A DNA stretch of 64,000 nucleotides from Escherichia phage P-GXEC-L2P5. Made by a program: the position numbers and the translations under genes. This document shows, piece by piece, positions 1-64,000 of this stretch (the first letter of the stretch is position 1; each line of letters starts with the position of its first letter). The DNA lies in sequence record PQ843332.1; one strand, given 5' to 3'. A model generated the notes under the pieces. That model searched no databases. It saw only the letters and a program-made list of their open reading frames with translations, and had not been told where the DNA came from.

Positions 1-169
1 CGATGTTCTTTTCCACCCAATCGACGGCAACTTCGCTATAGCCGTCATCCAGCCAGCGGGTCGGATGGCGAATCATCCACGCCACCATTAACACGCCTTG
101 CACGCAATGCAGGATAAAGCCCAGCGCACCGAGCAAAAACATCAATAAGATTGCGAATACTTTATTCAT
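1..169 (-). CDS. small membrane protein, 5' part only (start codon 167..169; gene runs off the window start)
   Basis: Equivalent to the complete 80-aa ORF 49625..49867 in unit 2; hydrophobic N-terminus. Confidence 0.4.
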   Translation of the reverse strand, partial: MNKVFAILLMFLLGALGFILHCVQGVLMVAWMIRHPTRWLDDGYSEVAVDWVEKNI

Positions 170-1746
170 TGCTTAAGTCCTCGTCAGTAGCTTCCGACCA
201 CGCAGGGCGCGGGTCGTCGATTGGTGCTAACACCGGTTTGGCAGGTGCGCGCGTGATTTTATCACACAGCTTCGCCCACACTTTCGGTTTTTCGTCCTTC
301 AGTACCTTCTCGGCATCCGTAGGGCTGAGCAATGTTTCTTTGTACATCACATCGCGCTTGATCCGGGCCTTCGTGAAGATTTCAATAACTTCGCTCTCGT
401 CCGCCCACTTACGGATCCCTTCCTTACCGGCAACCATCTTGAGGCCCAGCGATTCGCCATCGCCCGCTCGCTCTCATCCGCCCACTTACGGATCCCTTCC
501 TTACCGGCAACCATCTTGAGGCCCAGCGATTCGCCATCGCCCGCCATTACCGCTTTGAATACCGCGGACTCGATAGCTTTGATGTGCTGGCGCATTGCGT
601 CCAGGCCTTCATAAGCCTTGCGCAGTTCTGCGGCGGTCATAGCGCCGGGGGCCGCTTCTTTCTTGCCACGCTTAGCACGTCGTGCCGCTTTGCGGGCTTC
701 GCGGGCCATATTGCGGTCGTGATTGGCGCATTCTTCCTCTGTCGCAATACTCACGTCGTCGCCCAGGTCTTCGTCTGTTGCCGTTGGTGGGGTCATCGTG
801 TCGATTGCAGCCTTAGCGCGGGCGCTACACTGATCCGCAAATCTGCACCACTGACACGCATCAACGCTCGGTCGGAAGTCGGCACGGGTTAGTCCCTTTT
901 TGCCGCGGGCGTACGCTTCCAGGGCGGCGATAGCACGCTTGGACGCAAACTTCGCGAATATCTCCAGGGCTTCTACCGAAATATCCCACTCCGACGCCCC
1001 GCCGCAATACGGCTGGAAGATAACCAGGCGCACGGTCGTAATGTCGTACATGGTTTTCAGCTTGCGCAGCAGGCCCAGCGCATACAACATAAGCTGTTTG
1101 TTTTCTTTCGCCTCGACCTTATGCCACCCAGTCTTCAGGTCGCCAACAATCAGCATGTACGTACCGTCGGTCTTCTTCATGACCATGACCATATCTGCAG
1201 TACCGAACGTCTTAACCCGGTTGCCGTCGATCTCGTAGTCTGAGTGAAGGACGCGGGTCAGATCGGCGCGCATCTCAAGCTGGACAAACTCTGCCACTTC
1301 GAGGAGCGGTCGCCACCTGAGTGAAGGACGCGGGTCAGATCGGCGCGCATCTCAAGCTGGACAAACTCCGCCACTTCGAGGAGCGGTCGCCAGTGGTCGA
1401 TGTACGCGTCGCACTGTTTCACCATGTCGTCGTTGACCAGTACGCCGCCTTTCGGCGCTTTCGGGTGCGCCTTTACTGGCCCCTTGCCTTCATTCTCGAC
1501 GTAGCACCCTTTGTACGTCTTCGCGGTTATCATCTTCTCACCGGCAATGATGCGGTTGAGCACGACTTCAGATACGGTGTGCATACTCGTACCGTTAATC
1601 GCCGCTTGCCCGGATTCGTTCGGGATATCTTTTTCCACCACCAGGGCGGCGGGGCAACCCATCCATTTTTTAGACCCGGACGGGCCGAGTAATGAATGCT
1701 CCGTGTTGCTACCGGATTGCGTTTTACGTTTTGGTTTAATCGCCAT
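162..1746 (-). CDS. DUF2800-type PD-(D/E)XK nuclease (Cas4/RecB-like); frame broken by tandem duplications 391..544 and about 1240..1392
   Basis: N-terminus LLGPSGSKKWMGCPA, IVGDLKTG...K core, C-terminal CQWCRFADQC cysteine cluster; the intact unit-2 fragment is a single 391-aa ORF. Confidence 0.7.
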
Positions 1747-1822
1747 TATTCCACCCGTGTAAACTGTAATGAGTGTTCTGTATTGCTACCGGATTGCGTT
1801 TTACGTTTTGGTTTAATCGCCA

Positions 1823-2002
1823 TTATTCCACCCGTGTAAACTGGACAATTACATATTTCACATTAGCCTTGCCCGCTTTTTCGCCGCGGCGCTTAACTTC
1901 ATTTTGTGCGTCCGCAAAGCAATTGCTTTCGTTGGTGTTTTCAACAATAAAAGAGCAATGGTCGTCTAATTTGTGGCATGTTGCCAGGACGAAGAATTTC
2001 AT
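1823..2002 (-). CDS. small hypothetical protein (59 aa)
   Basis: Hand-translated MKFFVLATCH...; GGGAGA RBS; TAATG stop/start overlap with the upstream gene; diverged homolog in unit 2. Confidence 0.4.
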   Translation of the reverse strand: MKFFVLATCHKLDDHCSFIVENTNESNCFADAQNEVKRRGEKAGKANVKYVIVQFTRVE

Positions 2003-2253
2003 TATTTTGTCTCCCAGCGGTCAATTGTTCTTGCTTCTGATGCAACGGCGAAGCGAACATATTCCAGATTGGAATCGGCCCAAATATAAAAGTCGGGATT
2101 AGTAAAGGTGGTGCGCTTAATTTGCGCGGGGGTGTTGCGGCGTTTGTCTATTACAGCCACGCGCGACCGAAAATTGCCGATGCGTTCGAATAGCCAATAA
2201 TATGGGCGTTGGTCGCGGGAGTCCACCGCCTCGATTAGCGTGAAGCGTGCCAT
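2002..2253 (-). CDS. hypothetical protein (83 aa)
   Basis: ORF conserved in unit 2 (51623..51874). Confidence 0.55.
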   Translation of the reverse strand: MARFTLIEAVDSRDQRPYYWLFERIGNFRSRVAVIDKRRNTPAQIKRTTFTNPDFYIWADSNLEYVRFAVASEARTIDRWETK

Positions 2254-2301
2254 TGTCTCGTCCTCTAAAAAGAGGCCCGCTAATATGCGGGCCGGATAAT
2301 A

Positions 2302-2427
2302 TTAATCTTCACCGCCGAGTTGTTTATAAACCTCGTCCGGGTCGTCGCCTCTTTCTTCGCAGAAGGCGGTGAATGCCGCCCAATTTTCTGCTATGAAATC
2401 GAGCATGATTCTCATTTCATAGTCCAT
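2302..2427 (-). CDS. small hypothetical protein (41 aa)
   Basis: Hand-translated MDYEMRIMLDFIAENW...; start directly after the upstream stop; conserved in unit 2. Confidence 0.35.
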   Translation of the reverse strand: MDYEMRIMLDFIAENWAAFTAFCEERGDDPDEVYKQLGGED

Positions 2428-2431
2428 GATA

Positions 2432-2950
2432 TTAGTCTTCCAGTTCGAAATAAGTCTCGACGATTTCTTTTAAATCTTTGTGGAAGTCTTCGACGTCGTC
2501 GTCTTCCAGCTTGGCGATTGATTTGATCTCGAACGCTTCCAGCAGGTCGTCAAATTCGTCGTTAGCATCGTCGTCATCACCACCGGCGATAATCGCGGCA
2601 TACTGTTTGATTTCGTCGCGCATCTCTGCCAGCGGATCGGCATCTTTCTTACCTTTGCCTTTCGCCGGTGCTTTTTTAGCCTTAGCCGGTTTTTCGTCTT
2701 CGGCGTCTTCGTCGTCGTCATCTTCTACGACTTCTTTTTTGGCCTTACCCTTCGCCGGTGCTTTTTTAGCTTTAGCCGGTTTTTCGTCTTCGGCTTCATC
2801 GTCGCCATCTTCGACAACTTCTTTTTTGGCCTTAGACGGCTTCTTGTCGTCCTGCTTACCAACGGCAGCGCCAACGGTTTCATAATGCTTAGCGATGACT
2901 TCCAGTGCTACTACGCCGCGAGTGATCAGGTTTACGATTTGCTCAAACAT
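2432..2950 (-). CDS. acidic/lysine-rich repeat protein, first gene of the leftward operon
   Basis: Internal in-frame repeat EVVED(D)..EDEKPAKAKKAPAKGK twice, poly-D/E tracts, GGAG RBS. Confidence 0.6.
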   Translation of the reverse strand: MFEQIVNLITRGVVALEVIAKHYETVGAAVGKQDDKKPSKAKKEVVEDGDDEAEDEKPAKAKKAPAKGKAKKEVVEDDDDEDAEDEKPAKAKKAPAKGKGKKDADPLAEMRDEIKQYAAIIAGGDDDDANDEFDDLLEAFEIKSIAKLEDDDVEDFHKDLKEIVETYFELED

Positions 2951-3264
2951 GGTATATCTCCGATTGGTTAAGTTTAGGTGTCGGCAGTTAACTTCGTCGG
3001 TGGCCTTAACATATTGCCAGGTTGCGCGTTCTCCCGTTCGGGTAGTGGACCTGGTTATATAATCACGGTTGGGAATCCTGACACTTCGATCCGGCCCCTG
3101 CGTTGCCCCTCCTTTCGGGTAGTGGACCTGGTTATATAATCACGGTTGGGAATCCTGACACTTCGATCCGGCCCCTGCGTTGCCCCTCTCCAGTTTGCGT
3201 CCTGCATCCTGTCGACGAGGTGAATGATAGATTGGTTGCAGGATGGGTGTCAACAACTAATTTC

Positions 3265-3298
3265 AAAAAAAAAGCGCCGAGGCAAAATGCGACGGCGC
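3265..3298 (-). terminator. rho-independent terminator on the minus strand inside the control region
   Basis: Stem GCGCCG/CGGCGC with 13-nt loop followed on the minus strand by a 9-10 T run; stem conserved in unit 2. Confidence 0.5.
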
Positions 3299-3369
3299 TA
3301 ACCAATAAGAGACAATGAGACGGGAATTATTATTACACGCGTGCGCGCCCGTTTCAATATCCAAAGGAT

Positions 3370-3398
3370 TTGACACCATGCAGTTTTAGGTGTAGTTT
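3370..3398 (+). promoter_or_regulatory. candidate sigma70-like promoter for the rightward operon
   Basis: Perfect TTGACA at 3370..3375, 17-bp spacer, weak -10 TAGTTT; conserved in unit 2. Confidence 0.35.
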
Positions 3399-3429
3399 CG
3401 TTGGTCATTAACCAACAGGAGACTGAATT

Positions 3430-3759
3430 ATGAATATCAAAGAAGCAATTGAAGTGTTATCTAATGCAATCCGCGGCGAAGCGGGTAAATCCTGGTATTA
3501 CACAAATGCGGTGGATACTCTGTTATTTGAAGTGTCCAGATTATCGCGTGCTGAGAAGGAGCTTACCGCGAAGCTGGAATTGCTCAACGGCACGGCAGCA
3601 AGCAAGCTGCAAAAACACAATGAAGAAATGGAAGAATACAAAAAGCAGGTTATCCGTTTGCGCAATGAGGGAAAGTCATGGGCAATGATCGCCGAGTTGA
3701 CCGGAATTAATCAGAGCACAGTGCGCTCCTGGGTACGCAATAATAAAACTTCAAAGTAA
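3430..3759 (+). CDS. HTH DNA-binding regulator
   Basis: C-terminal GKSWAMIAELTGINQSTVRSWV helix-turn-helix; first gene of the rightward operon. Confidence 0.6.
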   Translation: MNIKEAIEVLSNAIRGEAGKSWYYTNAVDTLLFEVSRLSRAEKELTAKLELLNGTAASKLQKHNEEMEEYKKQVIRLRNEGKSWAMIAELTGINQSTVRSWVRNNKTSK

Positions 3760-3846
3760 GGCAACGGCAATGAGCTTGATTAAATTCGCTGTAACACGAC
3801 CCGCTAAAAAAGGCGAAAAAGCCAGGTTCGAAGTAAGGCAACGGCA

Positions 3847-6111
3847 ATGAGCTTAATTAAATTCGCTGTAACACGACCCGCTAAAAAAGGCGAAAAAGCC
3901 AGGGCGGAAAACTTCCAGATGACTACCGAAGAGTTTTTCGAATTTATCAATGATGCGAAAGAAATCTCCTCGGTGCATATCAACAAAACGGAAGATAAAG
4001 CGGAGTATGCGCGCCGCAAGCGTAAGGCTGATGGGATTGTGGCTTATACCAGTGACGGATTACGCCGCAAGACCAGTGCGGTGGATCGCTCGATCCTGTT
4101 CTTCGATATTGACCGTACCGACACCCGCACCCTGCGCCGCTGCCGTAAGGCGTTCATCGACGCGGGACTGGAACATGTATTTCACACCACAACCGGCGAT
4201 CGCCACCCGCTGAAAGGTGGCACGCGTTGCGCTCGTTTCCTGGTGCTCACTGACAAGCCTGTACCGGCTGAAGACCTGGGCCGCGTCCAGTATGCACTAT
4301 TACACCAACTGGGCCTGTCAGATGTGGACTTCGACGATTGCACGAAAGACACAAACCGCCTTATGTACCTGCCTCACCAGCAATCGGTTGTTAAGTGTCA
4401 CTACGGCAAACGTGCCCGCGTCCGTCGTCTGCTTCGCCTGGCTGATAAGCTGGGAGTGGAAAAAGAGGAAGTACGCCGCGAGCTTACCCATGGCGACGAC
4501 GCAGTGGCAGACGGCATTCTGGACTGGTGCTTCCAGGCCGGATTCGAGGAGTTATCTTCTGGTCGCGGTTATGAAGTGCCGTGCCCGAACGAACATCTGC
4601 ATAGTGGCGAAGGGTCCACCGCTATCATGGTTAAGGATGGCGAGATCCGTTTCAAGTGTATGCACACCGGCAACGAGTGCTGTTCCGAACTGAACAGACA
4701 CCAGCACCTGGCGCTACGTCTTATCGGGATCCCGGACCACCTGAACGTCGAACCGCACAACATGTCACGTAAGCAAATCGCCGCCATCCTCCCAGGACTG
4801 GACGACGAGGAAGTGGAATCGTGCTATGCGCATATCGTTGATGCGGTCGGAGACGGCGACGAGTACGGCGGATGTACGGACGCAGACTTGGACAACGAGC
4901 CGGTTGCACTGTTCAGCAAGCACGACCCGATCATCGAGGGGTTGATTAACTTTAAATCGACCTGGTATCTTGCCGGTGAGTCGAACATCGGTAAGTCGTT
5001 CTATGTGCTGGGGCAAATGGGTGCGGTTGCCGCGGGGATTCCGTTCGGCGGCGCGAAGGTCGTCCAGTCTCATTGCTTCTATTTCGACGCGGAAGGTGGC
5101 GAAGCCTCCAACCAGCGTAAGGAAGCATTGCAGATTAAATATGAGCACGACCTGGACAAGCTGCACATTATCGATCTGCAATCACGCGGCTGGGATATCA
5201 CCAGCAAATCCGGCTTGCGTGAAGTTATCAGCTTCATCAACCGCACCGCTAACGGCGAGCCGGTTGGCCTGGTGGCGTTCGACTCACTCAACCAGACTGT
5301 TGCGCTGCGGTCCGCCGATGCTAAACCGTTCGACGAGAACAACGCCAGCGATATGGGTGAAGTGGTCAAAGCGCTGAAGGCCATTGCGGAAAATACAGGC
5401 GGCAGTGCGGGCGTCATCCACCACCCGGCGAAGGGTGCAAACGGCAGCAGATCTCCCCGTGGGTCCGGCGCGCTGCATGGCGCTGTCGATTCTGCGTTCT
5501 TCCTCGAGCAACCGGACGACAATCAGCCGGGCCAATTGAACCTGTATCACGAAAAGGCGCGTAACGGCATCAAGCAAGCGCCGCGCGGCTTCGTCCTGCT
5601 CAAGTGCAAGGTTAAGGTGGATCTCCGCAAGTCCGAAGCGTTCGAATCACACCAGTCCACCAGCACCGGGCCTGACTTCGGCGACGTGGTTGCCGGTTGG
5701 GACGTCAAGCCAATTGCATCCACGCCACGCGACGAGACTCTTTATCTCGTACCTGTCGCCCTGGCACCGTTCGCCATCGAACAGGCGAAGGCCGCGGGCA
5801 AGGCCGCAGTTAAGGATGAGAACGCCGCAGGACCGCGCAATGAAAAAGAGAAAGTGCTTTATGCGGCACTGGAAAAACTGATGGAAGATAACCCGGACCA
5901 TACCGGATTCAGTAAATCGGCAATTGTCCGCCAGGCGGGATTGGCAAAAGGTGGCACATCGACGAAGGCAATAGACGATATGGTGGAGCGCGGCGTGCTC
6001 GGTTTTTATACAGATCCGCACACCGGGGCCATCTATGGGTCGTCGAATATCGTCATTAAAACGAATATACCCATCACGCTTTCTGCGACCGATGACGATC
6101 TGAAAGATTAA
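3847..6111 (+). CDS. DNA primase/helicase (AEP primase-polymerase domain plus RecA-like P-loop NTPase)
   Basis: LFFDIDRTD and HVFHTTTG primase motifs; Walker A-like GESNIGKSFYVLG; 754 aa; start region duplicated at about 3770/3847. Confidence 0.85.
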   Translation: MSLIKFAVTRPAKKGEKARAENFQMTTEEFFEFINDAKEISSVHINKTEDKAEYARRKRKADGIVAYTSDGLRRKTSAVDRSILFFDIDRTDTRTLRRCRKAFIDAGLEHVFHTTTGDRHPLKGGTRCARFLVLTDKPVPAEDLGRVQYALLHQLGLSDVDFDDCTKDTNRLMYLPHQQSVVKCHYGKRARVRRLLRLADKLGVEKEEVRRELTHGDDAVADGILDWCFQAGFEELSSGRGYEVPCPNEHLHSGEGSTAIMVKDGEIRFKCMHTGNECCSELNRHQHLALRLIGIPDHLNVEPHNMSRKQIAAILPGLDDEEVESCYAHIVDAVGDGDEYGGCTDADLDNEPVALFSKHDPIIEGLINFKSTWYLAGESNIGKSFYVLGQMGAVAAGIPFGGAKVVQSHCFYFDAEGGEASNQRKEALQIKYEHDLDKLHIIDLQSRGWDITSKSGLREVISFINRTANGEPVGLVAFDSLNQTVALRSADAKPFDENNASDMGEVVKALKAIAENTGGSAGVIHHPAKGANGSRSPRGSGALHGAVDSAFFLEQPDDNQPGQLNLYHEKARNGIKQAPRGFVLLKCKVKVDLRKSEAFESHQSTSTGPDFGDVVAGWDVKPIASTPRDETLYLVPVALAPFAIEQAKAAGKAAVKDENAAGPRNEKEKVLYAALEKLMEDNPDHTGFSKSAIVRQAGLAKGGTSTKAIDDMVERGVLGFYTDPHTGAIYGSSNIVIKTNIPITLSATDDDLKD

Positions 6112-6255
6112 ATCCTGCGCGCATTGGTTGCCGGTATGGGAATTCCCATATCGCTAAAAGGTTAAATTTTGCGCGCATTGGTTGCCATTTTGAGTGTTTT
6201 TATCGGGTCGTATTGGTTGCCGTGTAGTGTAAATATAATGAATAGTTATGCAGTT

Positions 6256-6428
6256 TTATTGCATAAAGTAAGCGGGACAGAAAGCGGGACAAACAAGGGG
6301 CGGGACAAAGCGGGACAGCACCCCCGTCCCGCCCCGTATGGCGCGGCCTGGAGAGGAGCGGGACAGGCGGGACAACCCCCAGTCTTTCAGACTAGACGGG
6401 GGTCAGCGGCCCCCCTCGTCTGAGACTG
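6256..6428. repeat. iteron array: six GCGGGACA direct repeats preceded by TGCATAAA, then a GC-rich imperfect hairpin
   Basis: GCGGGACA at 6272, 6284, 6299, 6310, 6358, 6367; inverted repeat cagtctttcagactagacggggg / cccccctcgtctgagactg. Confidence 0.7.
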
Positions 6429-6645
6429 AATAAAATCCGGGGATTGCAAAATACACGGCAGCATGATGCGAAGTGCGGTCGCGGATGAACTAGGCAACCA
6501 ATGCGAGTTGCATTATGCGAAGTGAAAAATGCGGTTTGCAGTCACAGCAGATAGCGATCAACTTTTTCATGCGCGTGATTAATATTGGTTGCGTTCCGCC
6601 TGGCACCTTGCTATATTGGTTGCACCCCAACATGAGGACTGAACA

Positions 6646-6972
6646 ATGAAAGCGATTATCTGGAATTACGCAATGGCTATGGCGGCGGCACAAGAAGCGG
6701 CGGAGTTCGCCGGTGAAGGAGCGGAAGCGGTCGAAAGACTATCGGCAGCGTGGTCCGTTGTTCGCGTCACGCAGCAGGCCATCGCTTGTATGCTGGAGCG
6801 CCGCTTCGACACGATGGCGGAGATCCAGCCACTGGCGAACGCAATCCAGGACTACGCGCTTGCATTTGCCCGTGAGCGCCTTGCGTATCGCTTCGGGATC
6901 GGCGAGACGGCAGTGACAAACGTCGCCCGGATTAAAGCCCAGCGTGAACTATTCGCCCAGCTTGCGAAATAA
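6646..6972 (+). CDS. hypothetical protein (108 aa, alanine-rich helical)
   Basis: ORF conserved in unit 2 (56423..56749). Confidence 0.55.
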   Translation: MKAIIWNYAMAMAAAQEAAEFAGEGAEAVERLSAAWSVVRVTQQAIACMLERRFDTMAEIQPLANAIQDYALAFARERLAYRFGIGETAVTNVARIKAQRELFAQLAK

Positions 6973-7209
6973 GGGGCCAAAATGAGCCGTTGACGCAGAC
7001 TCGCTACTTGCACCAGTTCGCAGCGCAACACGATTTCAGGGTGCGGACTTCCTTGCAACCAATGGGAATACGCAGACACGCTACTTGCACCAGTTCGCAG
7101 CAAAACACGATTTCAGGGTGCGGACTTCCTTGCAACCAATGGGAATTCGTATTACATTACGCCGGAAGCCCGCCGTTGAGCGGGTAGGCAAACACTGGAG
7201 ACTGAGCAA

Positions 7210-7464
7210 ATGACGCCAATGCAAATAACGCTAATGGCAGGGTATTCGCAGGAGTTTATCGACCTCGTATCCTGCTATGACGACTACACCCATTACGGCA
7301 TCGCTACGGTATGCGACGGCGACAACCTTACAGCCGACGAGCTTGATGAGGTCGACGACTACACTACCGAGGAACTTTGCGCGCTGATGTGCGGCGTGCC
7401 TGTATGGGCGAAAGAGTCCCCACTAGCCGCAGACGGCGACAACATGTACAGGTACAGAAAGTAA
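7210..7464 (+). CDS. small protein whose C-terminal ~45 aa mimic the DNA polymerase C-terminus; absent from unit 2
   Basis: DDYTTEELCALMCGVPVWAKESPLAADGDNMYRYRK versus polymerase DDYTTEELCALMCDLPIWAKGFPLAAEGDCMYRYRK. Confidence 0.5.
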   Translation: MTPMQITLMAGYSQEFIDLVSCYDDYTHYGIATVCDGDNLTADELDEVDDYTTEELCALMCGVPVWAKESPLAADGDNMYRYRK

Positions 7465-7536
7465 GATTATGAAAGCATCGATTAGCAAAACATTAAACTT
7501 CCCCGCAGCACGGTTAAACTTTAAGGAGACAGAACA

Positions 7537-8109
7537 ATGAAATTACTATTCCGCCGTAAGCACGATGGCCGTATCCTGAAGCCGATCCAAACCCTGGATT
7601 CCCACGTCCGCTTACAAAACGCGGCTGGCGGTCGGGTGTGGTGGGCAAAGAAATACACGCTGCCGGAAAACTTCGACGTACTAACTCACGATATCGAGCG
7701 CGGCGATGTGCTGCGTGATATTCGCGACGGCGGATTGTGGGTCGTCGAGTATGTCGGCCGTCATGGCCTGCGTATGCAATCCCGCAAGGATGGCGTAGTG
7801 GGTAACATACAGAGGGGTATGACGTACTTTGGGCTAATCAACTACGAGCGAGTGGGGCGCAAGTACAGCCTGCGCGACCGCCAGCCTCATGAGCGCGTTG
7901 AGTTCCGCAAGTCGCAGCCCGCGTATGCCACTTACGACGCGAGCAAAGTGATGGAGCCGATCCGCCAGGCCACGCGTGAGATAGTCAATCGCTTTGATGC
8001 CGTGACGAATGCACAGCGCCAGGCGCGGGAATACGGTGTGGGATTTATCCGTGTCGAACCAGACGGCAGCATGAAGGCCATCGACCCGCGCTCGGTGATT
8101 ATGAAATGA
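7537..8109 (+). CDS. hypothetical protein (190 aa)
   Basis: ORF with GGAGA RBS; conserved in unit 2 (57025..57567). Confidence 0.55.
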   Translation: MKLLFRRKHDGRILKPIQTLDSHVRLQNAAGGRVWWAKKYTLPENFDVLTHDIERGDVLRDIRDGGLWVVEYVGRHGLRMQSRKDGVVGNIQRGMTYFGLINYERVGRKYSLRDRQPHERVEFRKSQPAYATYDASKVMEPIRQATREIVNRFDAVTNAQRQAREYGVGFIRVEPDGSMKAIDPRSVIMK

Positions 8110-8252
8110 GTGCGTCTATCCGTGATATGCTCATGCACAACCGCTTTGAGATAGGCGGTCGGGTGTTTCGCAATTACTTCGTGGCGCGTGCATGGGCGCG
8201 CCATATTGGCAAACCGGAAGGGGCAATTCGATGCTATACGTCTTCGCGGTAG
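8106..8252 (+). CDS. small hypothetical protein (48 aa)
   Basis: ATGA overlap with the upstream stop; conserved in unit 2. Confidence 0.3.
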   Translation: MSASIRDMLMHNRFEIGGRVFRNYFVARAWARHIGKPEGAIRCYTSSR

Positions 8253-8316
8253 TATGTGGCGGTAGTCTGGCGGCCCTGGTGCTGTTGGCGTCGGTTATTA
8301 GTCTGGTTAAATACCT

Positions 8317-8616: not shown

Positions 8617-8668
8617 TTATGCAAGCGTGATATAGTCCCAGTGAGCTAAAACTTACTGGGACTTTTTT

Positions 8669-9007: not shown

Positions 9008-9031
9008 CGTGTATGCGCCGGGGGGCGCAAA

Positions 9032-9755: not shown

Positions 9756-9771
9756 TACGAGGGGACACGAT

Positions 9772-9939: not shown

Positions 9940-9946
9940 ACAATCA

Positions 9947-9971
9947 AGCCCGGATAATACCGGGCTTTTTA
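9947..9971 (+). terminator. rho-independent terminator
   Basis: AGCCCGG-ataata-CCGGGCT followed by TTTTTAT. Confidence 0.75.
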
Positions 9972-9975
9972 TTGC

Positions 9976-53463: not shown

Positions 53464-55959
53464 ATGAGCTTAATTAAATTCGCTGTAACACGACCCGCTA
53501 AAAAAGGCGAAAAAGCCAGGGCGGAAAACTTCCAGATGACCACCGATGAATTTTTCGAATTTATCAATGATGCGAAAGAAATCGCGAAAAAGCCAGGGCG
53601 GAAAACTTCCAGATGACCACCGATGAATTTTTCGAATTTATCAATGACGCGAAAGAAATATCATCGGTGCATATCAACAAGACCGAGGATAAAGCGGAGT
53701 ATGCGCGCCGCAAGCGTAAGGCCGATGGCATCGTAGCGTATACCAGTGACGGCTTACGCCGCAAGACCAGCGCGGTGGACCGCTCGATCCTGTTCTTTGA
53801 TATTGACCGCACCGACACTCGCACCTTACGCCGCTGCCGTAAGGCGTTCATTGACGCGGGTCTGGAACACGTATTCCACACAACCACCGGCGACCGCCAC
53901 CCGCTTAAAGGCGGCACGCGTTGCGCTCGCTTCCTGGTACTCACTGATAAGCCGGTCCCGGCTGAAGACCTGGGCCGTGTCCAGTATGCGCTATTACATC
54001 AACTTGGTCTGTCGGATGTGGACTTCGACGATTGCACGAAAGACACAAACCGCCTGATGTACCTGCCGCACCAGCAATCGGTTATTAAGTGCCACTACGG
54101 CAAACGTGCCCGCGTCCGTCGTCTGCTTCGCCTGGCGGATACGCTTGGCGTGGAGAAGGAAGAAGTACGCCGCGAGCTTACCCAGGGCGACGACGCAGTG
54201 GCGGACGGGATTCTGGACTGGTGCTTCCAGGCAGGATTCGAGGAGTTATCTTCCGGTCGCGGTTATGAAGTGCCGTGCCCGAACGAACATCTGCACAGCG
54301 GCGAAGGGTCGACGGCTATCATGGTCAAGGATGGCGAGATCCGTTTCAAGTGTATGCACACCGGCAACGAGTGTTGCTCTGAGCTGAACAGACACCAGCA
54401 CCTGGCGCTACGTCTTATCGGGATACCGGACCACCTGAACGTCGAGCCGCACAACATGTCACGTAAGCAAATCGCCGCCATCCTCCCAGGGCTGGACGAC
54501 GAGGAAGTCGAATCCTTATATGAACATATTGTTGATGCGGTTGGCGACGGCGAAGAATACGGCGTGTGCACCGATGCGGATCTGGATAACGAGCCGGTCG
54601 CACTGTTGTTGATGCAGTTGGCGACGGCGAAGAATACGGCGTGTGCACCGATGCGGATCTGGATAACGAGCCGGTCGCACTATTCAGTAAGCACGACCCG
54701 ATCATCGAAGGCCTGGTCAACTTCAAATCGACCTGGTACATGGCTGGCGAGTCGAACATCGGTAAATCGTTCTACGTGCTGGGCCAAATGGGCGCGGTTG
54801 CCGCGGGGATTCCGTTCGGCGGTGCGAAGGTCGTCCAGTCTCATTGCTTCTATTTCGACGCGGAAGGTGGCGAAGCCTCCAACCAGCGTAAGGAAGCATT
54901 GCAGATCAAATATGAGCACGACCTGGACAAGCTGCACATTATTGACCTGCAATCACGCGGCTGGGATATCACCAGCAAATCAGGCTTGCGTGAAGTTATC
55001 AGCTTCATCAACCGCACCGCTAACGGCGAGCCGGTTGGCCTGGTGGCGTTCGACTCACTCAACCAGACTGTTGCGCTGCGGTCCGCCGATGCAAAACCGT
55101 TCGACGAGAACAACGCCAGCGATATGGGCGAAGTGGTCAAAGCGCTGAAGGCCATTGCGGAAAATACAGGCGGCAGTGCGGGCGTCATCCACCACCCGGC
55201 GAAAGGTGCAAACGGCCGCAGATCTCCCCGTGGGTCCGGCGCGCTGCATGGTGCTGTCGATTCTGCGTTCTTCCTGGAGCAACCGGACGACAACCAGCCA
55301 GGTCAATTGAACCTGTATCACGAAAAGGCACGTAACGGCATCAAGCAAGCGCCGCGCGGCTTCGTCCTGCTCAAGTGCAAGGTTAAGGTGGATCTCCGCA
55401 AGTCCGAAGCGTTCGAAGCCCACCAGTCCACCAGCACCGGGCCAGACTTCGGCGATGTGGTTGCCGGTTGGGACGTCAAACCAATTGCGTCCACCCCGCG
55501 CGACGAGACTCTATACCTCGTACCGGTAGCCCTGGCACCGTTCGCGATAGAACAGGCGAAGGCGGCGGGCAAAGCCGCAGTTAAGGAAGAGAACACCGCC
55601 GGTCCGCGCAACGAAAAAGAGAAAGTGCTTTATGCGGCCCTGGAAAAACTGATGGCAGATAACCCTGACCATACTGGATTCAGTAAATCGGCAATTGTAC
55701 GCCAGGCGGGACTCGCTAAGGGTGGCACTTCGACGAAGGCAATAGACGATATGGTCGAGCGCGGCGTGATTGGTTTCTATACAGATCCGCACACCGGGGC
55801 CATATATGGGTCGTCGAATTTAGTCATCAAATCTGATATCCCCTGATTGGTTTCTATACAGACCCGCACACCGGGGCCATATATGGGTCGTCGAATTTAG
55901 TCATCAAATCGGAGATCCCCATAACGCTTTCGGCGACCGATGACGACCTGAAAGACTAA
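53464..55959 (+). CDS. unit 2: DNA primase/helicase; frame broken by duplications
   Basis: ORFs 53613..55148 and 54641..55846 homologous to 3847..6111. Confidence 0.8.
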
Positions 55960-56030
55960 ATCCTATTTTGAGTGTTTTTAGCTGGTCGCATTGGTTGCCG
56001 TGCAGTATAAATATAGTGAATAGTTATGCA

Positions 56031-56210
56031 ATAAAACTGCATAAAGTAAGCGGGACAAAAAGCGGGACAAACTTGGGGCGGGACAAAGCGGGACAGCACC
56101 CCCGTCCCGCCCCGGATGACGCGGCCTGGAGAGGAGCGGGACAGGCGGGACAACTCCCAGTCTTTCAGACTAGACGGGGGTCAGCGGCCCCCCTCGTCTG
56201 AGACTGCATA
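56031..56210. repeat. unit 2: GCGGGACA iteron array plus GC-rich hairpin
   Basis: Same TGCATAAA / GCGGGACA / hairpin architecture as 6256..6428. Confidence 0.7.
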
Positions 56211-56422
56211 AAATCCGGGATTGCAAAATACACGGCAGCACATTGGAAATCGCGGTCGTCGATGAACTGGGCAACCAATGCGAGTTGCAGAATGTGGTGT
56301 GAAAAATGCAGTTTGCAGTCACAGCTGATAGCGATCAACTTTTTCATGCGCATGATTAATATTGGTTGCATTCATGCCAGCACCCTGCTAGATTGGTTGC
56401 ACACCAACATGAGGGCTGAACA

Positions 56423-56749
56423 ATGAAAGCGATTATCTGGAATTACGCAATGGCTATGGCGAAGGCACAAGAAGCGGCGGAGTTCGCCGGGGAGGGGGCG
56501 GAAGCAGTAGAGAGACTATCGGCAGCGTGGTCCGTTGTTCGCGTCACGCAGCAGGCCATCGCCTGTATGCTTGAGCGCCGCTTCGACACGATGGCGGAGA
56601 TCCAGCCGTTGGCGAACGCTATCCAGGACTACGCGCTTGCATTTGCCCGTGAACGCCTGGCGTATCGCTTCGGGATCGGAGAGACGGCAGTGACAAACGT
56701 TGCCCGGATTAAAGCCCAGCGTGAGCTATTCGCCCAGCTTGCGAAATAA
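56423..56749 (+). CDS. unit 2: hypothetical protein (homolog of 6646..6972)
   Basis: ORF, 108 aa. Confidence 0.55.
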   Translation: MKAIIWNYAMAMAKAQEAAEFAGEGAEAVERLSAAWSVVRVTQQAIACMLERRFDTMAEIQPLANAIQDYALAFARERLAYRFGIGETAVTNVARIKAQRELFAQLAK

Positions 56750-57024
56750 GAGGCCAAAATGACCCGTAGACGCGCAAAACAGCTTTCGTGGCATATCCCC
56801 CTGCATTGCATACGAATATGGGCTAAGAATGCGAATGCGGGGGACTCTGTGTACTGGTGCTATCGCGACGACGTTAAGCCGTTGACGCAGACTCGCTACT
56901 TGCACCAGTTCGCCGCGCAACATGATTTCTATGTGCGGACCTCCTTGCAACCAATGGGGATCCGTATTACATTACGCCGGAAGCCCGCAGTCGAGCGGGT
57001 AGGCAAACACTGGAGACTGAGCAA

Positions 57025-57567
57025 ATGAAATTACTATTCCGCCGAAAATCAGATGGCCGCATTCTTAAGCCAATACAGACCCTTGACACCCATGTGCGAC
57101 TTCACCACGCCGCAAGCGATCGTGTCTGGTGGGCGAATAAGGCAAAGCTGCCGGAGAAATACGAAATCCTCACGCATGATATTGAGCGCGGCGATGTGCT
57201 GCGTGATATTCGCGACGGGCAATTGTGGGTCGTTGAGCACACCAGCCAGCACGGCTTGCGTATGCAAACCCGCAAGGGCGGAGTAGTGGGTAACATACAG
57301 AGGGTTATGACGTACTTCGGGCTAATCCACTACGAGCGCGTGGGGCGCAAATACTGCCTGCGCAACCGCCAGCCTCATGAGCGCGCAACCTACGACTCCC
57401 ACCAGGTGCAAGCGAAGATGGGCCGCGCCGTACACCAAATCGTCAATCGCTTTGATGCCGTGACGAACGCACAACGCCATGCGCAGGAATACGGTGTTGG
57501 ATTCATCCAGGTGGAACGAGACGGCAGCATGAAAGCCATCGACCCGCGCTCGGTGATTCTGAAATGA
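57025..57567 (+). CDS. unit 2: hypothetical protein (homolog of 7537..8109)
   Basis: ORF, 180 aa. Confidence 0.55.
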   Translation: MKLLFRRKSDGRILKPIQTLDTHVRLHHAASDRVWWANKAKLPEKYEILTHDIERGDVLRDIRDGQLWVVEHTSQHGLRMQTRKGGVVGNIQRVMTYFGLIHYERVGRKYCLRNRQPHERATYDSHQVQAKMGRAVHQIVNRFDAVTNAQRHAQEYGVGFIQVERDGSMKAIDPRSVILK

Positions 57568-57710
57568 GTGCGACGATCCGTGATATGCTTCAGCACAACC
57601 GCTTTGAGATAGGCGGTCGGGTGTTTCGCAATTACTTCGTGGCGCGTGCATGGGCGCGCCATATTGGCAAACCGGAAGGGGCAATTCGATGCTATACGTC
57701 TTCGCGGTAG
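57564..57710 (+). CDS. unit 2: small hypothetical protein (homolog of 8106..8252)
   Basis: ATGA overlap conserved. Confidence 0.3.
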   Translation: MSATIRDMLQHNRFEIGGRVFRNYFVARAWARHIGKPEGAIRCYTSSR

Positions 57711-57774
57711 TATGTGGCGGTAGTCTGGCGGCCCTGGTGCTGTTGGCGTCGGTTATTAGTCTGGTTAAATACCT

Positions 57775-58074
57775 ATGGGGCAGATTATGATTCATGATGT
57801 GATTTATTGGTTTGGTATGGCCAGCATGTTATGCCTGGTTACGGGAGTGCTGGGCGCAATATGGGTATTCCTGGTATGGCCTGCGGTGGAAGCTGCCAGC
57901 ATTACCCGGATGACATTCGAGATCTACAAGCGCCGTGGAATAACGGAGCACCCGACCAGGCTTCGGATGTGGTGGCTGTGGTATCGGGATATGATAGGCG
58001 GTCGAACATTCGAAGCCGTCCGCTCATCCGGGTGGGAGTGGAAAGGCGTCGGCAAGTTGTCCGTTTTCGATTAA
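57775..58074 (+). CDS. unit 2: small membrane protein
   Basis: Identical in protein sequence to 8317..8616. Confidence 0.45.
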   Translation: MGQIMIHDVIYWFGMASMLCLVTGVLGAIWVFLVWPAVEAASITRMTFEIYKRRGITEHPTRLRMWWLWYRDMIGGRTFEAVRSSGWEWKGVGKLSVFD

Positions 58075-58203
58075 TTATGCAAGCGTGATATAGTCCCAGT
58101 GAGCTCGGGTGGGAGTGGAAAGGCGTCGGCAAGTGGTCCGTTTTCGATTAATTATGCAAGCGTGATATAGTCCCAGTGAGCTAAAACTTACTGGGACTTT
58201 TTT

Positions 58204-58494
58204 ATGGATAAGCTAAACGAGTGGCTATTCGCCCTGGCATGTCTGGCGGGTGGCTTCGTAGGCGCACGCATTCATGGTGAGGCTACGAAGGGGCCGCTAA
58301 ACTTCGTTTTGTATGTTGTAGTTGGCTTCCTGTGTGCCATATTTGGCGCACCGGCTATTGCCGAGTGGGCTGGTTTGTCGGGTGAGCGCACTGTCGCCGG
58401 TTTGGGCTTCGTAACTGCGATCTTCTGGATGCCAATCGCCGACCGGATCAGGGAGACTATTGCGTCGTTCCGACTTCCGGGGGGCGCAAAATGA
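58204..58494 (+). CDS. unit 2: holin-like membrane protein
   Basis: 96-aa ORF ending with ATGA overlap into the next gene. Confidence 0.5.
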   Translation: MDKLNEWLFALACLAGGFVGARIHGEATKGPLNFVLYVVVGFLCAIFGAPAIAEWAGLSGERTVAGLGFVTAIFWMPIADRIRETIASFRLPGGAK

Positions 58495-58736
58495 TTATCT
58501 CCGTCCTGTTGTTTGTTATCATCGGGGCTTCGTCCCTGTTTAACGTGTATGCGCCGTCCGTCCGGGATGGCATTTTCGGTCGGGTGCTGTATCTGTTAAC
58601 GGCAATGGTCTGTATTATCGGATTGTTGCAAACAGGAGACGTATCGGATACCACCTGGACCGCGTTAATCTGGCTGTTTGCATTGCGCACCCTGCGTAAT
58701 GCTGTTTTAAATGGGGTAAAACATGCGATTCAGTGA
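58491..58736 (+). CDS. unit 2: small membrane protein
   Basis: Homolog of 9032..9277. Confidence 0.5.
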   Translation: MIISVLLFVIIGASSLFNVYAPSVRDGIFGRVLYLLTAMVCIIGLLQTGDVSDTTWTALIWLFALRTLRNAVLNGVKHAIQ

Positions 58737-58799
58737 TAACGGTCTTCTGGCTGTTTGCATTGCGCACCCTGCGTAATGCTGTTTTGAATGGGGTAAAAC

Positions 58800-59445
58800 A
58801 TGCGATTCAGTGATAACGGTCTACGATTTACGGCAGCCTGGGAGGCTTTCAGCCCGGTGCCGTATTTCGCGACCAAGAAAGAGCAGGCCCGCGGCCTGTA
58901 CACCTGGGGCTATGGTCACAGGCTTTCAGCCCGGTGCCGTATTTCGCGACCAAGAAAGAGCAGGCCCGCGGCCTGTACACCTGGGGTTATGGTCATACCG
59001 GCACTAATCCGCCTCGAAGCATTACCCGCGAGGAAGCGCTGGCACTGCTCAAGCGCGATGTGGCGTATGCTGAGGACTGGGTTAACAAATACGCACATCC
59101 GAGCATTAACCAGGCGCAATTCGACGCGCTGGTGGACCTGGTAATCAACGCCGGTCCGGGTCCGATCGTACCGGATGACGTCGCGAATGATTTCGATGAT
59201 GCGGTGTGGTGGACCTGGTAATCAACGCCGGTCCTGGTCCGATCGTACCGGATGACGTCGCGAATGATTTCGATGATGCGGTACGGTTGGGCGACTGGGC
59301 GAAGGTCCGTGCTACGCTGCCGCAGTTCCGCAAGCAAGGCGGCGAAGTGCTTAAGGGTCTGGTACGCCGTGCAATCGGCAGACAGGCGTTGTTTGATGGT
59401 AAGCAGTGGGACGTTGCCGAACGAATCGGTCGTAACGCTGCATAA
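58800..59445 (+). CDS. unit 2: GH24 endolysin; frame broken by duplications
   Basis: ORFs 58934..59221 and 59206..59445 carry the GYGHTG and NQAQFDALVDLVINAG motifs. Confidence 0.75.
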
Positions 59446-59461
59446 TACGAGGTAACACAGT

Positions 59462-59629
59462 ATGTTAAAAAGTATTCTTGATCATAATGCGGACGCGCTT
59501 GCTGCACTGGCTAAAACCGAAGATCCGGGCGCTCGCGCTATCATCGCGGACTCTATAAACCACGCTGGGGTCTTCGATGCGAAGCTGCCTAGCCCACCAC
59601 CGCAGGAGGAATCTGGTCCTGCAGCGTAA
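59462..59629 (+). CDS. unit 2: small hypothetical protein (homolog of 9772..9939)
   Basis: ATG 59462; same proline-rich C-terminus. Confidence 0.3.
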   Translation: MLKSILDHNADALAALAKTEDPGARAIIADSINHAGVFDAKLPSPPPQEESGPAA

Positions 59630-59943
59630 ACAATCAAGCCCGGGGGGTCTTCGATGCGAAGCTGCCAAGCCCACCACCGCAGGAGGAATCTGGTCCTGCA
59701 GCGTAAACAATCAAGCCCGGAATTAACCGGGCTTTTTATTGCTTGACTTGCAACCAACATAGACTCTATACTGCGACCAATCAACGAGAGGAGTAATCAA
59801 GATGGCACGTAAAGATATTTGGGTATTAGCGATCTGGACCACCACGGCTTTTATCGACATGGTTATTTGCGAATTGATATAGCCCGCCGCCATACGGACC
59901 GTGGTATATTGTCCGCGGTCCACTAATCAGGAATTAATTAAAT

Positions 59944-61163
59944 ATGCACCCGCAAACTAAAATTACCGATGAGCAATTGATCGCAGAAATTCAGGAAGGG
60001 ACTACAGTTAAAGAGATTGCGAAGAAGTACGGCATCGCACTTCGAAATGTCTATATGCGCAAAGCCCGCCTGTCTAAAAAGGGGATTGGTCACGGCAATG
60101 ATGCAGTGATCCGTAAGCGCGTTGCCGATGGTTTTGGTGTTAAGCGCGTATCGGCCCTGGTACGCGGCAATGGCGAAGAGGTCATGTCGTGGGTCATCAC
60201 TGAGCAGGACAAAGAGCGCCAACTCGAAGCCATGCGCGCTGTTGCAATGGCGAAGAGGTCATGTCGTGGGTCATCACTGAGCAGGACAAGGAGCGCCAAC
60301 TCGAAGCCATGCGCGCTGTTGTCGAGGGTATGAACAGCGAAATCACACCGGCAGCGCCCGTAAACGCCACGCCAGTCCCGATTCAGGCGCTCGACTTGCT
60401 CAACCTGTACACAGTGTCCGACTTCCACCTGGGTATGCTGGCGTGGGGCGAGGAGACTGGCGAAGACTGGGATATGGCGATTGCTGAAGACCTGTTCTAC
60501 CGCTGGTTTGTCGAAGCCTTCGCCCGCGCACCGGACGCAGGAACTGCCGTTATCAATATCCTCGGGGATATGGCCCACTTTGATAGCCTTGATGCCGTCA
60601 CACCGGCAAGCGGTCACGTACTGGACGCCGACACACGATACCAGAAGTTGGTCCGCTATATGATTCGCATGGTGCGCAACGTGGTTGACCTGGCGCTGCA
60701 AAAACACCACAAAGTAAAACTGCTAATCGTCCAGGGTAATCATGACGAGTCGGGCATGATTTGGCTTGCTGAGATGTTCAATACCCTGTATGAGAACGAG
60801 CCGCGCGTCGATGTGGACACGTCCCCGGACGTCTACAAAATGGTGCAGCACGGTAAGACCACGCTATTTTTCCACCACGGGCACAAAGCGCGATTCGATG
60901 TTATCGAGCAGGTTATGATCGCTAAATTCAGACAGGCGTTCGGGGCGAGCGAATACAGCTACGCGCACGTAGGCCATTTGCACCACCAGAAGATTGTTGA
61001 ATCCCGCAACATGATTGTCGAACAGCACAGGACGCTCGCAGCGAAAGACGCCTACGCCAGTCGTGGCGGCTGGATGAGCGGTCGCAGCGCAAACGTCATC
61101 ACCTATAGCGCCAACTACGGAGAAGTAGCGCGCTTAACCATTAGCCCGGAAATGTTGAAGTAA
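59944..61163 (+). CDS. unit 2: HTH-metallophosphoesterase fusion; one duplication near 60170..60290
   Basis: ORFs 59944..60333 and 60261..61163 are contiguous when collapsed; all phosphoesterase motifs present. Confidence 0.7.
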
Positions 61164-61349
61164 CGGCGACCCGTAACCAGCCCAGCCTGCCGATTTGGTG
61201 GGCTTTTTTGTGCCTGTTATAATCCCCGTTAGATGGCAGGGCCGTCTCCTATGTTGCCGATGGCTGCCGATTTGGTGGGCTTTTTTGTGCCTGTTATAAT
61301 CCCCCTTAGATGGCAGGGCCGTCTCCTATGTTGCCGATGGTCGGCGCAT

Positions 61350-61922
61350 ATGAACAAAAGGGCATATATCATGGCAGAAATCAAAGTTAAGGGCCGACGC
61401 GCCAAACTGGACGGACGAGTAGCAGTTACCCCGCGCCGTAAACCAGGCGAGCAAACCGAGCATACCAATCTCGGACCTGAAATCGAGTACGGAAAGCGCC
61501 GTAAAGGCGGCAAATGTGGACGCCCTACGGACTACCGATCCGTTTACTGCGACCAGCTTCGCCGCTATTTTGCCGACGCCGACGCCTGGCAGGTCAACTA
61601 CTCCGATAAAGGCGCTGCGCAAGTAATCCCCCGCAACAAAATGCCAACCTTTGGTCGATTTGCCGCGGAAATCGGTGTGGGCGTAGCTTGCCTGTATCGC
61701 TGGGCGCGCGCACATGAGGAGTTCGCCGAGGCGATGGCGGATGCTATGGAGTTGCAGAAAACTTTCCTGATGGAAGCTGGTGGCGTAACCATCGCGGCGG
61801 GCTTCGCTACGTTCCTGCTTAAAGCAAACCACGGCGTCCGCGACGATGTACCGCTGGACGACGACGAAGATGATAACGGCGACGTCGTTGTGGAACCTAC
61901 CGGCAAAGGTCAGGGTGATTAA
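61350..61922 (+). CDS. unit 2: terminase small subunit
   Basis: Homolog of 11856..12428; N-terminal MNKRAYIMAEIK conserved. Confidence 0.65.
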   Translation: MNKRAYIMAEIKVKGRRAKLDGRVAVTPRRKPGEQTEHTNLGPEIEYGKRRKGGKCGRPTDYRSVYCDQLRRYFADADAWQVNYSDKGAAQVIPRNKMPTFGRFAAEIGVGVACLYRWARAHEEFAEAMADAMELQKTFLMEAGGVTIAAGFATFLLKANHGVRDDVPLDDDEDDNGDVVVEPTGKGQGD

Positions 61923-63384
61923 TGCGTAACTATGCGGCAGAACACCGCGCACTGGAACGCGCGATCGCAAAGCGCAACCGACCACCACGCCCCACACGCG
62001 TTGCGCAGGCTGTGCGTCTTTACCAGCCAGATTGCCTTCCTCACCAGGTTGAACTACTGCGCGACACGAAGACTAAAATCCTCGGCCTGTGTTCCGGCTT
62101 CGGCGGTGGCAAGTCATGGGTTGCCGCACGTAAGGTCATCCAGCTTCTGACACTTAACCCTGGTTATGACGGCATCGTGACCGAACCGACTATTCCACTC
62201 CTGGTCAAAATCATGTACCCGGAACTGGAGAAGGCATTCGACGAGGCTGGCTTACGGTGGAAGTTCAATAAGCAGGACAAGATCTACAACGTGCTGGTGA
62301 AAGGCAAATGGACTCGCGTTATCTGTGAGTCAATGGAGAACTATACCCGCCTGATCGGGGTCAACGCCGCGTGGATTGTTGCCGACGAGTTCGACACCAC
62401 GAAACAAGACGTCGCAATGGCGGCATACCACAAATTGCTCGGTCGTCTGCGTGCGGGCTTCGTCCGCCAGTTTGTCATCGTGTCCACGCCGGAAGGCTAC
62501 CGGGCGATGTATCAAATATTCGAGGTGGAGAAGGGTAGCCAGAAGCGCCTGATCCGGGCGAAGACCACGGACAACCACCATTTACCGGCAGACTTTATCG
62601 ACACGCTGCGCAGTCAGTACCCGGCTAACCTGATTGATGCGTACCTGAACGGCCTGTTTGTTAACCTTACGTCGGGCGCGGTGTACAAGATGTTCAACCG
62701 CGAGGAGAACGCCAGCACCGAAGAAGTGCAGCCGGACGACACGCTGATTATCGGTATGGACTTTAACGTCACGAAAATGGCGGCGGTTGTGTATGTCAGA
62801 CGGCAGCGCATCACCGAGAACAAGGAGTTCCGCGACGAGATCCACGCAGTGGATGAATTTGTGGACCTGTTTGACACCCCGGCTATGATTGAGGCGATCG
62901 AGGAGCGCTACCCGGAACATTGTGCCGCCGGTAGGGTCGTCGTTTACCCGGATAGCAGCGGCAAATCCCGCAAGACGGTCAACGCGTCGTCGTCCGATAT
63001 CGCACAACTGGAAGACGCGGGCTTCGAGGTGGAGTATGACAGCGTTAACCCGCCTGTGAAAGACCGATTGATCGCGATGAATACGATGATGTGCAACTCG
63101 AAGGGCGTGCGCCAGTATTTGTTAACCCGCCTGTGAAAGACCGATTGATTGCGATGAATACGATGATGTGCAACTCGAAGGGCGTGCGCCAGTATTTTGT
63201 CAACCTGGATAAATGCCCTACACTAGCGAAATGTCTGGAACAGCAGGTTTACGACCTGAAGAAAGGCGAGCCGGATAAAACCGCCGGGGTGGACCACATG
63301 AACGATGCCGCGGGCTACCCTATTGCGCACTTGTTCCCTGTGATTCGTCCGATCGCCGTTGTTCCAACTGTAGACTTCTACTAA
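61922..63384 (+). CDS. unit 2: terminase large subunit; frame broken by duplication near 63050..63180
   Basis: Walker A GFGGGKS, Walker B IVADEFD. Confidence 0.85.
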
Positions 63385-63395
63385 GGAAACCGACC

Positions 63396-64000
63396 ATGAC
63401 CGTTAACGTTGACAACCAGCACCCGCTCTATGCGCGCATAGCGCCAGAGTGGAAAATGATCCGTGACTGCGTAGCAGGGGAGCGCGCCGTGAAGGCGTGC
63501 GGGCCATTGTACCTGCCACACCCCGCAAGCGGGGACACCACCGACCCGAAATCACGGGCACGCTATAAGGCATATAAGCAACGCGCTGTCTTCCTGAACG
63601 CCACCGCCCGCACACTGAATGCGCTGTTAGGTGTCGCCTTCGCCAAACCGGTGAGTATGGACCTTTCCGGGGCAATGGCTGACCTGATTGATGACGTAGA
63701 CGGCAGCGGGATGCCACTGGCGCAACTACTGCGCGGCGCTATGTCGGAAGTGCTGCAATCAGGCCGTGCCGGTTTTATGGTGGACTACGACCGCCAGGCG
63801 CATTTTGACGAACTGGGTAACGTAGTGCCGCAGACCGCCGCTGAAATGGCGGCACACCGCCCGCTTATCCGCCTGTATACGGCTGAACAGATCATCAACT
63901 GGCGGCGCAGACCGCCGCTGAAATGGCAGCACACCGCCCGCTTATCCGCCTGTATACGGCTGAACAGATCATCAACTGGCGGCAGACCCACGGGGTAGAC
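63396..64000 (+). CDS. unit 2: portal protein, 5' part (runs off the window end)
   Basis: Homolog of the 13901 start; duplication near 63830..63960. Confidence 0.55.

Follow-up and report, generated by a model that had tools for sequence, protein, structure and literature searches.

The window, as we call the whole 64,000-nt stretch analysed here (positions 1 to 64,000 of sequence record PQ843332.1, Escherichia phage P-GXEC-L2P5), is with virtual certainty a non-biological stitching artefact of some kind, be it in-silico, mixed-sample or constructed. It is a chain of ca. 66 pieces, 77 to 4,667 nt long and drawn from at least five to eight genomes; each piece, i.e. the stretch between two joins, aligns end to end to a phage reference genome. 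All of its content is Dhillonvirus (HK578-like siphovirus, ca. 45 kb), arranged in the gene order of the genus. The dominant feature of the window is a set of 64 tandem duplications of period 77, absent from an earlier sequence-only reading that had described the stretch as about 1.29 tandem genome units, the second being a diverged variant of the first. As to the origin of the chain, we consider a k=77 artefact of assembly or concatenation likely, one made from a pool of published Dhillonvirus genomes in silico and in an assembler-like manner.

A scan of periods 60 to 99 yielded 64 tandem duplications at period 77, spread across the whole window, and no array at all at 38 other periods, the exception being one natural 90-bp repeat. 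Every duplication consists of two abutting copies, each of exactly 77 nt, which are identical in 13 of the 64 pairs and carry 1-4 mismatched sites in the others. Tandem Repeats Finder (TRF) independently reported 64 period-77 arrays, 63 of them at ca. 2.0 copies and one at 3.0. In this triple array (48,585-48,817) the first and second copies agree at 76/77 positions and the second and third at 67/77, its join at 48,738 representing a 65th, degenerate duplication. Whenever the two flanking pieces could be located on the same reference, their overlap was exactly 77 nt, which holds for 58 of the 58 evaluable joins (the seven others were unscored, BLAST having clipped mismatched terminal bases). 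Each duplication represents a join, at which two pieces sharing 77 nt on the reference meet. Junction-spanning 78-mers were found in none of 10 related genomes, a junction-spanning 40-mer had no match in viral, metagenome and genome contig collections, and two junction-spanning open reading frames (ORFs) had none in an exact-protein index. To our knowledge, no biological mechanism gives a constant duplication length of 77 nt at 64 sites.

Since 77 is not a multiple of three, a join inside a gene shifts its reading frame. Joins lie within the exonuclease, the helicase-primase boundary, holin, DNA-repair exonuclease, large terminase, portal (three), head morphogenesis and scaffold genes, and further ones within those for major capsid (two or three), tail completion, tape measure, minor tail, J-like tail tip (two), methyltransferases and others. 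The frameshifting duplications thereby fall in essential genes of both laps, a lap being one passage along the gene order. When the joins were collapsed, that is, one 77-nt copy per join was deleted, the number of reference ORFs covered to at least 95% by one window ORF rose from 94 to 175 of 221, whereas in a control 77-nt deletions at 64 random places did not lengthen ORFs. The terminase, portal, tape-measure and J-like ORFs went from 49-87% to 100%. The large terminase, reduced to 404 aa (ORF 12428..13642) instead of about 461, recovered from 87% of its 462-aa reference ORF; the portal-sized 513-aa reference ORF started at 74% and the 894-aa tape-measure one at 62%. The 1133-aa J-like reference ORF had been covered to 49%, as the two joins in the gene break it into ORFs of 334, 545 and 312 aa. 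The collapsed first lap measures 45,925 nt, and members of the genus 43.5-45.3 kb.

Concerning the source of the pieces, the window is syntenic with, and 98.8-99.9% identical to, the Dhillonvirus members SO-1, EP23, YD-2008.s, slur05 and Envy (the first three are species named by the International Committee on Taxonomy of Viruses in the record taxonomy), which follow each other as five blocks (see the table). Positions 1-14,500 are 99.4% identical to slur05/slur06, with the next-best record at 92.9%, and the collapsed 1-14,504 reaches 99.53% against slur05. In the SO-1 block, 20,001 window bases correspond to 18,635 bases of SO-1 in 21 BLAST alignments, with exact inner patches of slur05, EK99P-1, YD-2008.s, SSL-2009a, JL1 and EP23. 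Positions 55,844-58,105 match EP23 at 99.7%, the next-best record being at 90.3%. Among the ca. 160 Dhillonvirus records of the phage collection the best source of a block is always an early reference, with the runner-up 3-10% off, and a later-deposited genome is the best source of none. According to the record metadata, SO-1 comes from the tsetse symbiont Sodalis (United Kingdom), YD-2008.s from Malaysian goat faeces, Envy from the microbiota of the human bladder and EK99P-1 from South Korea, whereas Shigella sonnei was the isolation host of EP23 and E. coli that of slur05.

Piece interiors mostly show 0 mismatches to their source, and in the slur05 block the mismatches sit in the first ca. 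130 nt of a piece. Two long pieces with a poor (97%) single-source match are exact coarse mosaics with 0 mismatches per 100-200 nt, in the orders Envy/SO-1, slur05, EK99P-1, SO-1 and EK99P-1, slur05, EK99P-1, slur05. The first piece of the YD-2008.s block, from 60,244, similarly passes from SSL-2009a to EP23, YD-2008.s, EP23 and again YD-2008.s. Such inner source switches carry no 77-nt duplication in pieces 17138-18880 (EK99P-1/slur05) and 33489-37876 (Envy/slur05/EK99P-1/SO-1), every segment of which is exact. At several of the inner switches the two genomes have an exact stretch of 77-100 nt in common, and at none is the overlap 69-76 nt. Because sources change inside pieces without duplication, the pieces were chimeric contigs from the outset, and the 77-nt joins stem from a separate, second chaining step. 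That the long pieces match poorly for want of a complete reference pool is ruled out by these exact mosaics of pool genomes, and no deposited phage matches the long pieces or the error-prone piece ends described below better than the pool does.

The relation between the two laps can be read against these sources. Self-comparison places 2..14,504 collinear with 49,700..63,999 in ca. 20 BLAST blocks of 87-96% identity, all in the same order, bearing out the parallel gene order that the sequence-only reading had noticed. The first of its two units is slur05, the second EP23 and then YD-2008.s; collapsed, the second is 98.26% identical to EP23. The collapsed units are 92.45% identical in a global alignment (12,947 columns; 756 gap columns), and deposited slur05 and EP23 show 92.01% over the same region, the divergence between the units thus matching that between two published phages. 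The longest exact match between laps is 100 nt. Two genes said to be missing from the second unit do lack a counterpart there: 7214-7524 and 11,470-11,748 are 100% identical to slur05 and are poorly matched or absent in the source genomes of the second unit. Likewise, a difference in holin length is genuine, with 112 aa (8669..9007) against 96 aa (58204..58494), as in the deposited annotations (slur05 gp39, 339 nt; EP23p52, 291 nt). Of the indels and altered termini attributed to divergence between the units, then, some are real and others are produced by the 77-bp duplications, for example in ORF 11470..11712, which runs over the join at 11,674.

The division into a first unit and a diverged second one does not describe the window, since the first lap alone changes source twice, from slur05 to Envy to SO-1; as it is already a chimera, the unit boundary is not where divergence starts. 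A real molecule, either a replication concatemer or tandem related phages or prophages whose second unit diverged by recombination, has a practically negligible probability. It would account for the recurrence of the gene order after about one genome length, and phage replication does yield concatemers (general knowledge, also in the CheckV text, PMC8116208). However, a difference of 7.5% separates the units, whose matches are to different published phages, the first lap is a chimera of three phages, and 65 frameshifting 77-bp duplications interrupt essential genes in both laps. The lap boundary lies in EP23 sequence that is continuous over 48,739-51,017, with no break and no non-phage DNA at it, and the perfect duplicate at 49,454-49,607 is an ordinary join within this continuous sequence. 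Tandem related prophages, which had been among the options offered, are countered by the phage-only pieces, by the uninterrupted EP23 stretch and by the frameshifting duplications in every lap; the source records have no integrase among their annotated genes, in a search that was not aimed at integrases. The earlier argument, that the units should not differ in a natural concatemer, is sound. Concatemer, tandem prophages and recombinant, as natural origins, are thus excluded, because the duplication length is a constant 77 nt at 65 sites, essential genes are disrupted in both laps, non-phage DNA is lacking at the boundary and each block can be traced to its own source. Chimeric assembly or constructed sequence, a further suggestion of the sequence-only reading, is right in kind but not in its two co-occurring strains, given at least five main sources which are separately published isolates. 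Similarly, its refuting scenario of a second unit consisting of artefactual errors and not of real divergence is half correct: the divergence is real sequence, but it is that of other phages.

Further information on how the chain arose is held by the piece ends. Each piece has one perfect and one error-prone, or dirty, end, with 7 versus 129 departures from the source over ca. 1,200 polymorphic sites each. Read the way its source record was deposited, a piece has its dirty end at 3' in 48 of the 52 informative cases. Two dirty-end 40-mers had no match in viral and metagenome contig collections. Novel substitutions show a transition:transversion ratio of 18:22, compared with 306:256 for known alleles, which is uninformative on random error. 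The possibility that dirty ends represent a per-site majority consensus of the pool was ruled out, as they switch at only 37% of the minority-allele sites. At the beginning of the window, 1-128 contains five departures from slur05 (9, 11, 12, 68 and 128), resembling the dirty start of all other slur05 pieces. Base 1 of the window is therefore probably the first base of a piece, and it may also be that of the whole record.

Under the k=77 in-silico explanation a pool of related Dhillonvirus genomes would have been assembled, or a graph built from such a pool walked, and the resulting contigs or graph paths would have been written end to end with the 77-nt overlap between neighbours left untrimmed. 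A size of 77 is standard for de Bruijn k-mers. Given the shared circular gene map and identical stretches of at least 77 nt, such a chain could pass one genome length and continue onto another genome. If it avoided re-using sequence, it would run from slur05 through Envy to SO-1 in the first lap and from EP23 to YD-2008.s in 0.29 of a second, which would be the 1.29 units originally noticed. We infer that the input was the deposited records themselves, as simulated reads or as a direct graph, and not a real sample, because the cores match, at 100%, six or more isolates that came from unrelated laboratories and are all early references, and because the error-prone end of the pieces tracks the orientation of the deposited records. 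A real read set carries no information on that orientation. The departure of the chain from EP23 falls at position 43,823, near the end of a linear record of 44,077 nt, which is only suggestive of an in-silico origin.

Several observations weigh against this explanation. True edges of a k=77 graph share an identical 77-mer, and here only 13 of the 64 pairs of overlap copies are exact. In a k=77 graph of 10 pool genomes, which may differ from the true input set, 4 of the 64 boundary 77-mers branch (background 1.1%), an enrichment that is nonetheless far from general; this pool also lacks 27 of the piece-start and 16 of the piece-end 77-mers. Dirty ends switch genome across shared stretches shorter than 77 nt (139 events, 0-68 nt), and 40 substitutions occur in no pool genome, 33 of them within 130 nt of a piece end. 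As for the polarity, a rival seed model, with outward growth from 25,023-25,176, fits it almost equally well (45:7 versus 48:4), only three YD-2008.s pieces tell the two models apart, and with five main sources a match to record orientation would arise by chance about once in 16. The 77-mer repeated at 25,023-25,176 is common to Envy, SO-1, SSL-2009a and YD-2008.s and is one of the only four branching ones. A pure k=77 walk over the deposited genomes was rejected on account of the 4/64 branching, 64 internal gaps in 78-mer coverage and the switches below 77 nt. The odd details suggest contig ends that were chimeric or carried errors from lower-k stages, read errors, polishing or additional inputs, plus a chaining step that was mismatch-tolerant or positional.

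The same artefact could also have come from a real mixed community or pooled lysate, sequenced as short reads and assembled at k=77, with the strain graph chained untrimmed, an origin that we regard as unlikely. All of the artefact evidence applies to it equally, the 40 substitutions outside the pool and the patchwork ends could be real minor variants, and Dhillonviruses are commonly met in sewage and faeces, their deposited records numbering more than 150 and being of many origins. It is opposed by the kilobase cores that are 100% identical to six or more independent isolates while the next-best of ca. 160 relatives stay at 90-97%, by the lack of any later-deposited genome as best source, by the location of 33 of the 40 novel substitutions no more than 130 nt from a piece end, an unevenness unlike natural variation, and by a dirty-end polarity that follows the deposited records. 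Kilobase-scale 100% identity to six or more such isolates within one natural sample is very unlikely. That near-clonal kin of six or more Dhillonviruses from three continents co-occurred in a real sample, the 77-bp joins still being artefacts, appears decidedly improbable; if true, it would mean a remarkably wide clonal dispersal and coexistence of Dhillonvirus lineages.

Deliberate construction of a test sequence, with reference pieces cut at homologous coordinates, given a fixed 77-nt overlap and overlaid with added noise, is quite unlikely as well. It would explain why the overlap is positional, being exactly 77 nt in reference coordinates even where the copies differ, and why piece boundaries are not graph branch points; the polarity following record orientation and the absence of the sequence from every public collection searched also agree with it. 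On the other hand, inner source switches without duplication and multi-genome patchwork ends resemble the by-products of an assembler and not those of a cut-and-paste script, piece lengths of 77-4,667 nt resemble the contigs of a tangled graph, and nothing positively points to a designer.

Table. Source blocks, joins and disrupted genes of the window. A join coordinate is the last base of the first copy; strand refers to the named source record for blocks and to the window for genes.
Feature	Window position	Strand	Details
slur05/slur06 block	1-22,288	minus	23 pieces; pieces 98.4-99.9%
Envy/Sloth block	22,289-24,979		four pieces; 99.4% (per piece 99.1-99.8%); next-best 96.9%
Sodalis phage SO-1 block	25,100-48,661	plus	19 pieces; 98.8%; next-best 93.6%
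Shigella phage EP23 block	48,662-60,243	plus	pieces 98.2-99.9%; holds lap boundary at ca. 49,699
Escherichia phage YD-2008.s block	60,244-64,000	minus	61,264-63,120 at 99.9%; next-best 96.5%
Joins, slur05 block (first part)	467, 1315, 1765, 3110, 3826, 7069, 9020, 10539, 11053, 11674, 13625, 13991		
Joins, slur05 block (rest)	15126, 15511, 16366, 17137, 18880, 19354, 19701, 19949, 21702, 22084, 22288		
Joins, Envy block to SO-1 switch	23331, 23684, 24315, 24979, 25099		
Joins, SO-1 block (first part)	25905, 27580, 28302, 30899, 31831, 33488, 37876, 38518, 38686, 39144		
Joins, SO-1 block (rest)	39546, 39914, 40360, 41498, 41783, 42140, 43723, 43994, 48661		
Joins, EP23 block	48738, 49530, 51017, 51407, 52445, 52994, 53582, 54603, 55843, 58105, 58745, 58918, 59205, 59643, 60243		
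Joins, YD-2008.s block	61263, 63120, 63905		
Join sequence example	30,899/30,900		...AAAGGCGGCGGCGGCAAA before the join, GCCGGAATCGTAACCGAGGA after it
Triple 77-bp array	48,585-48,817		TRF 3.0 copies; two joins, 48,661 and 48,738; middle piece a bare 77-mer
Perfect duplicate at source change to SO-1	25,023-25,099 = 25,100-25,176		77/77; dirty-end polarity flips here
Perfect 77-bp duplicate adjoining lap boundary	49,454-49,607		77/77; flanks overlap 77 nt at EP23 33,195-33,271
Large terminase join	copies 13,549-13,625 and 13,626-13,702	+	slur05 26,884-26,960 in gp32 (26,696..28,081)
Portal joins 15,126 and 15,511	15050..15588	+	slur05 25,537-25,613 and 25,229-25,305 in gp31 (25,165..26,685)
Tape-measure join	27504..27657	+	SO-1 13,813-13,889 in gp17 (11,598..14,240)
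J-like tail tip joins 31,831 and 33,488	31755..33565	+	SO-1 17,835-17,911 and 19,415-19,491 in gp22

Natural features of the source phages are also visible. An unbroken 1062-aa ORF at 45215-48403 on the minus strand corresponds to the DNA polymerase SO-1 gp38/EP23p36, and exceeds by ca. 300 aa the polymerase of slur05 and JL1 (763 aa). In the SO-1 record the insert is annotated as a group I intron with an HNH endonuclease ORF, the long frame being open throughout. Pfam recognizes in the 1062-aa ORF only a DNA_pol_A fragment (residues 393-469), and gave no match for the embedded 252-aa ORF at 46161-46919 (minus strand, other frame). At the 3' end of the polymerase gene, 45216-45325 resembles, in inverted orientation, 7354-7463, the end of the slur05-specific small gene 7210..7464 (110 nt, 82%), a similarity that also exists within the slur05 record.

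The 90-bp repeat, the only tandem duplication of a period other than 77 in the scanned range, spans 2661-2834 (2 copies, 90% match) inside the minus-strand ORF 2432..2950, and its homologue in the second unit, at 52264-52530, overlaps an artefactual 77-nt join. Natural non-coding, repeat-rich regions occur at 24676-24841, 6247-6418 and 56036-56196. The SO-1 annotation describes a 'region A' and a 'region B' with direct, inverted and palindromic repeats; region A holds a period-79 tandem repeat and is ca. 86% identical to region B in both laps.

The value of these results lies in quality control only, with no biological finding attached. A record of this kind would inflate genome size, introduce ca. 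65 false frameshifts with truncated, seemingly novel proteins, and suggest recombination or tandem duplication that never occurred. With a second lap only 92% identical to the first, it would slip past tests of exact k-mer multiplicity for concatenated genomes. A cheap screen would be to look for many tandem duplications of one fixed assembler-k length (55, 77, 99 or 127).

Comparable artefacts have been described. The CheckV authors found that direct repeats at contig ends pile up at 55, 77 and 99 bp, which are assembler k-mer lengths (PMC8116208). The window resembles such de Bruijn k-mer overlap artefacts (55/77/99/127 bp) in that the repeat is of k length, is absent from the true genome, and its removal restores genes. 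It differs in having 65 internal joins and not a single one at the contig termini, most copies carrying 1-4 mismatches. The same authors report IMG/VR contigs that hold a genome repeated 2.0-6.8 times and regard them as probable assembly artefacts (PMC8116208). Like these concatemer contigs, the window exceeds the genome length (64,000 vs 45,925 nt) with a repeated gene order, but its second copy derives from other phages, at 92.45% identity, and would go nearly unnoticed in a k-mer-frequency test, because few long exact k-mers are common to the laps. With the inter-strain chimeric contigs of mixed populations it shares source switches within conserved shared stretches, although here the strains are distinct published species, apparently from a database, and the chimera is longer than one genome. 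Compared with the genus Dhillonvirus itself, content, gene order and collapsed lap length are typical, but no single member equals the window. Two textbook features, identical overlap copies and identical genome copies, are both lacking, and the window is an unusual combination of three known artefact types, namely retained k-mer overlaps, a contig of more than one genome, and inter-strain chimerism.

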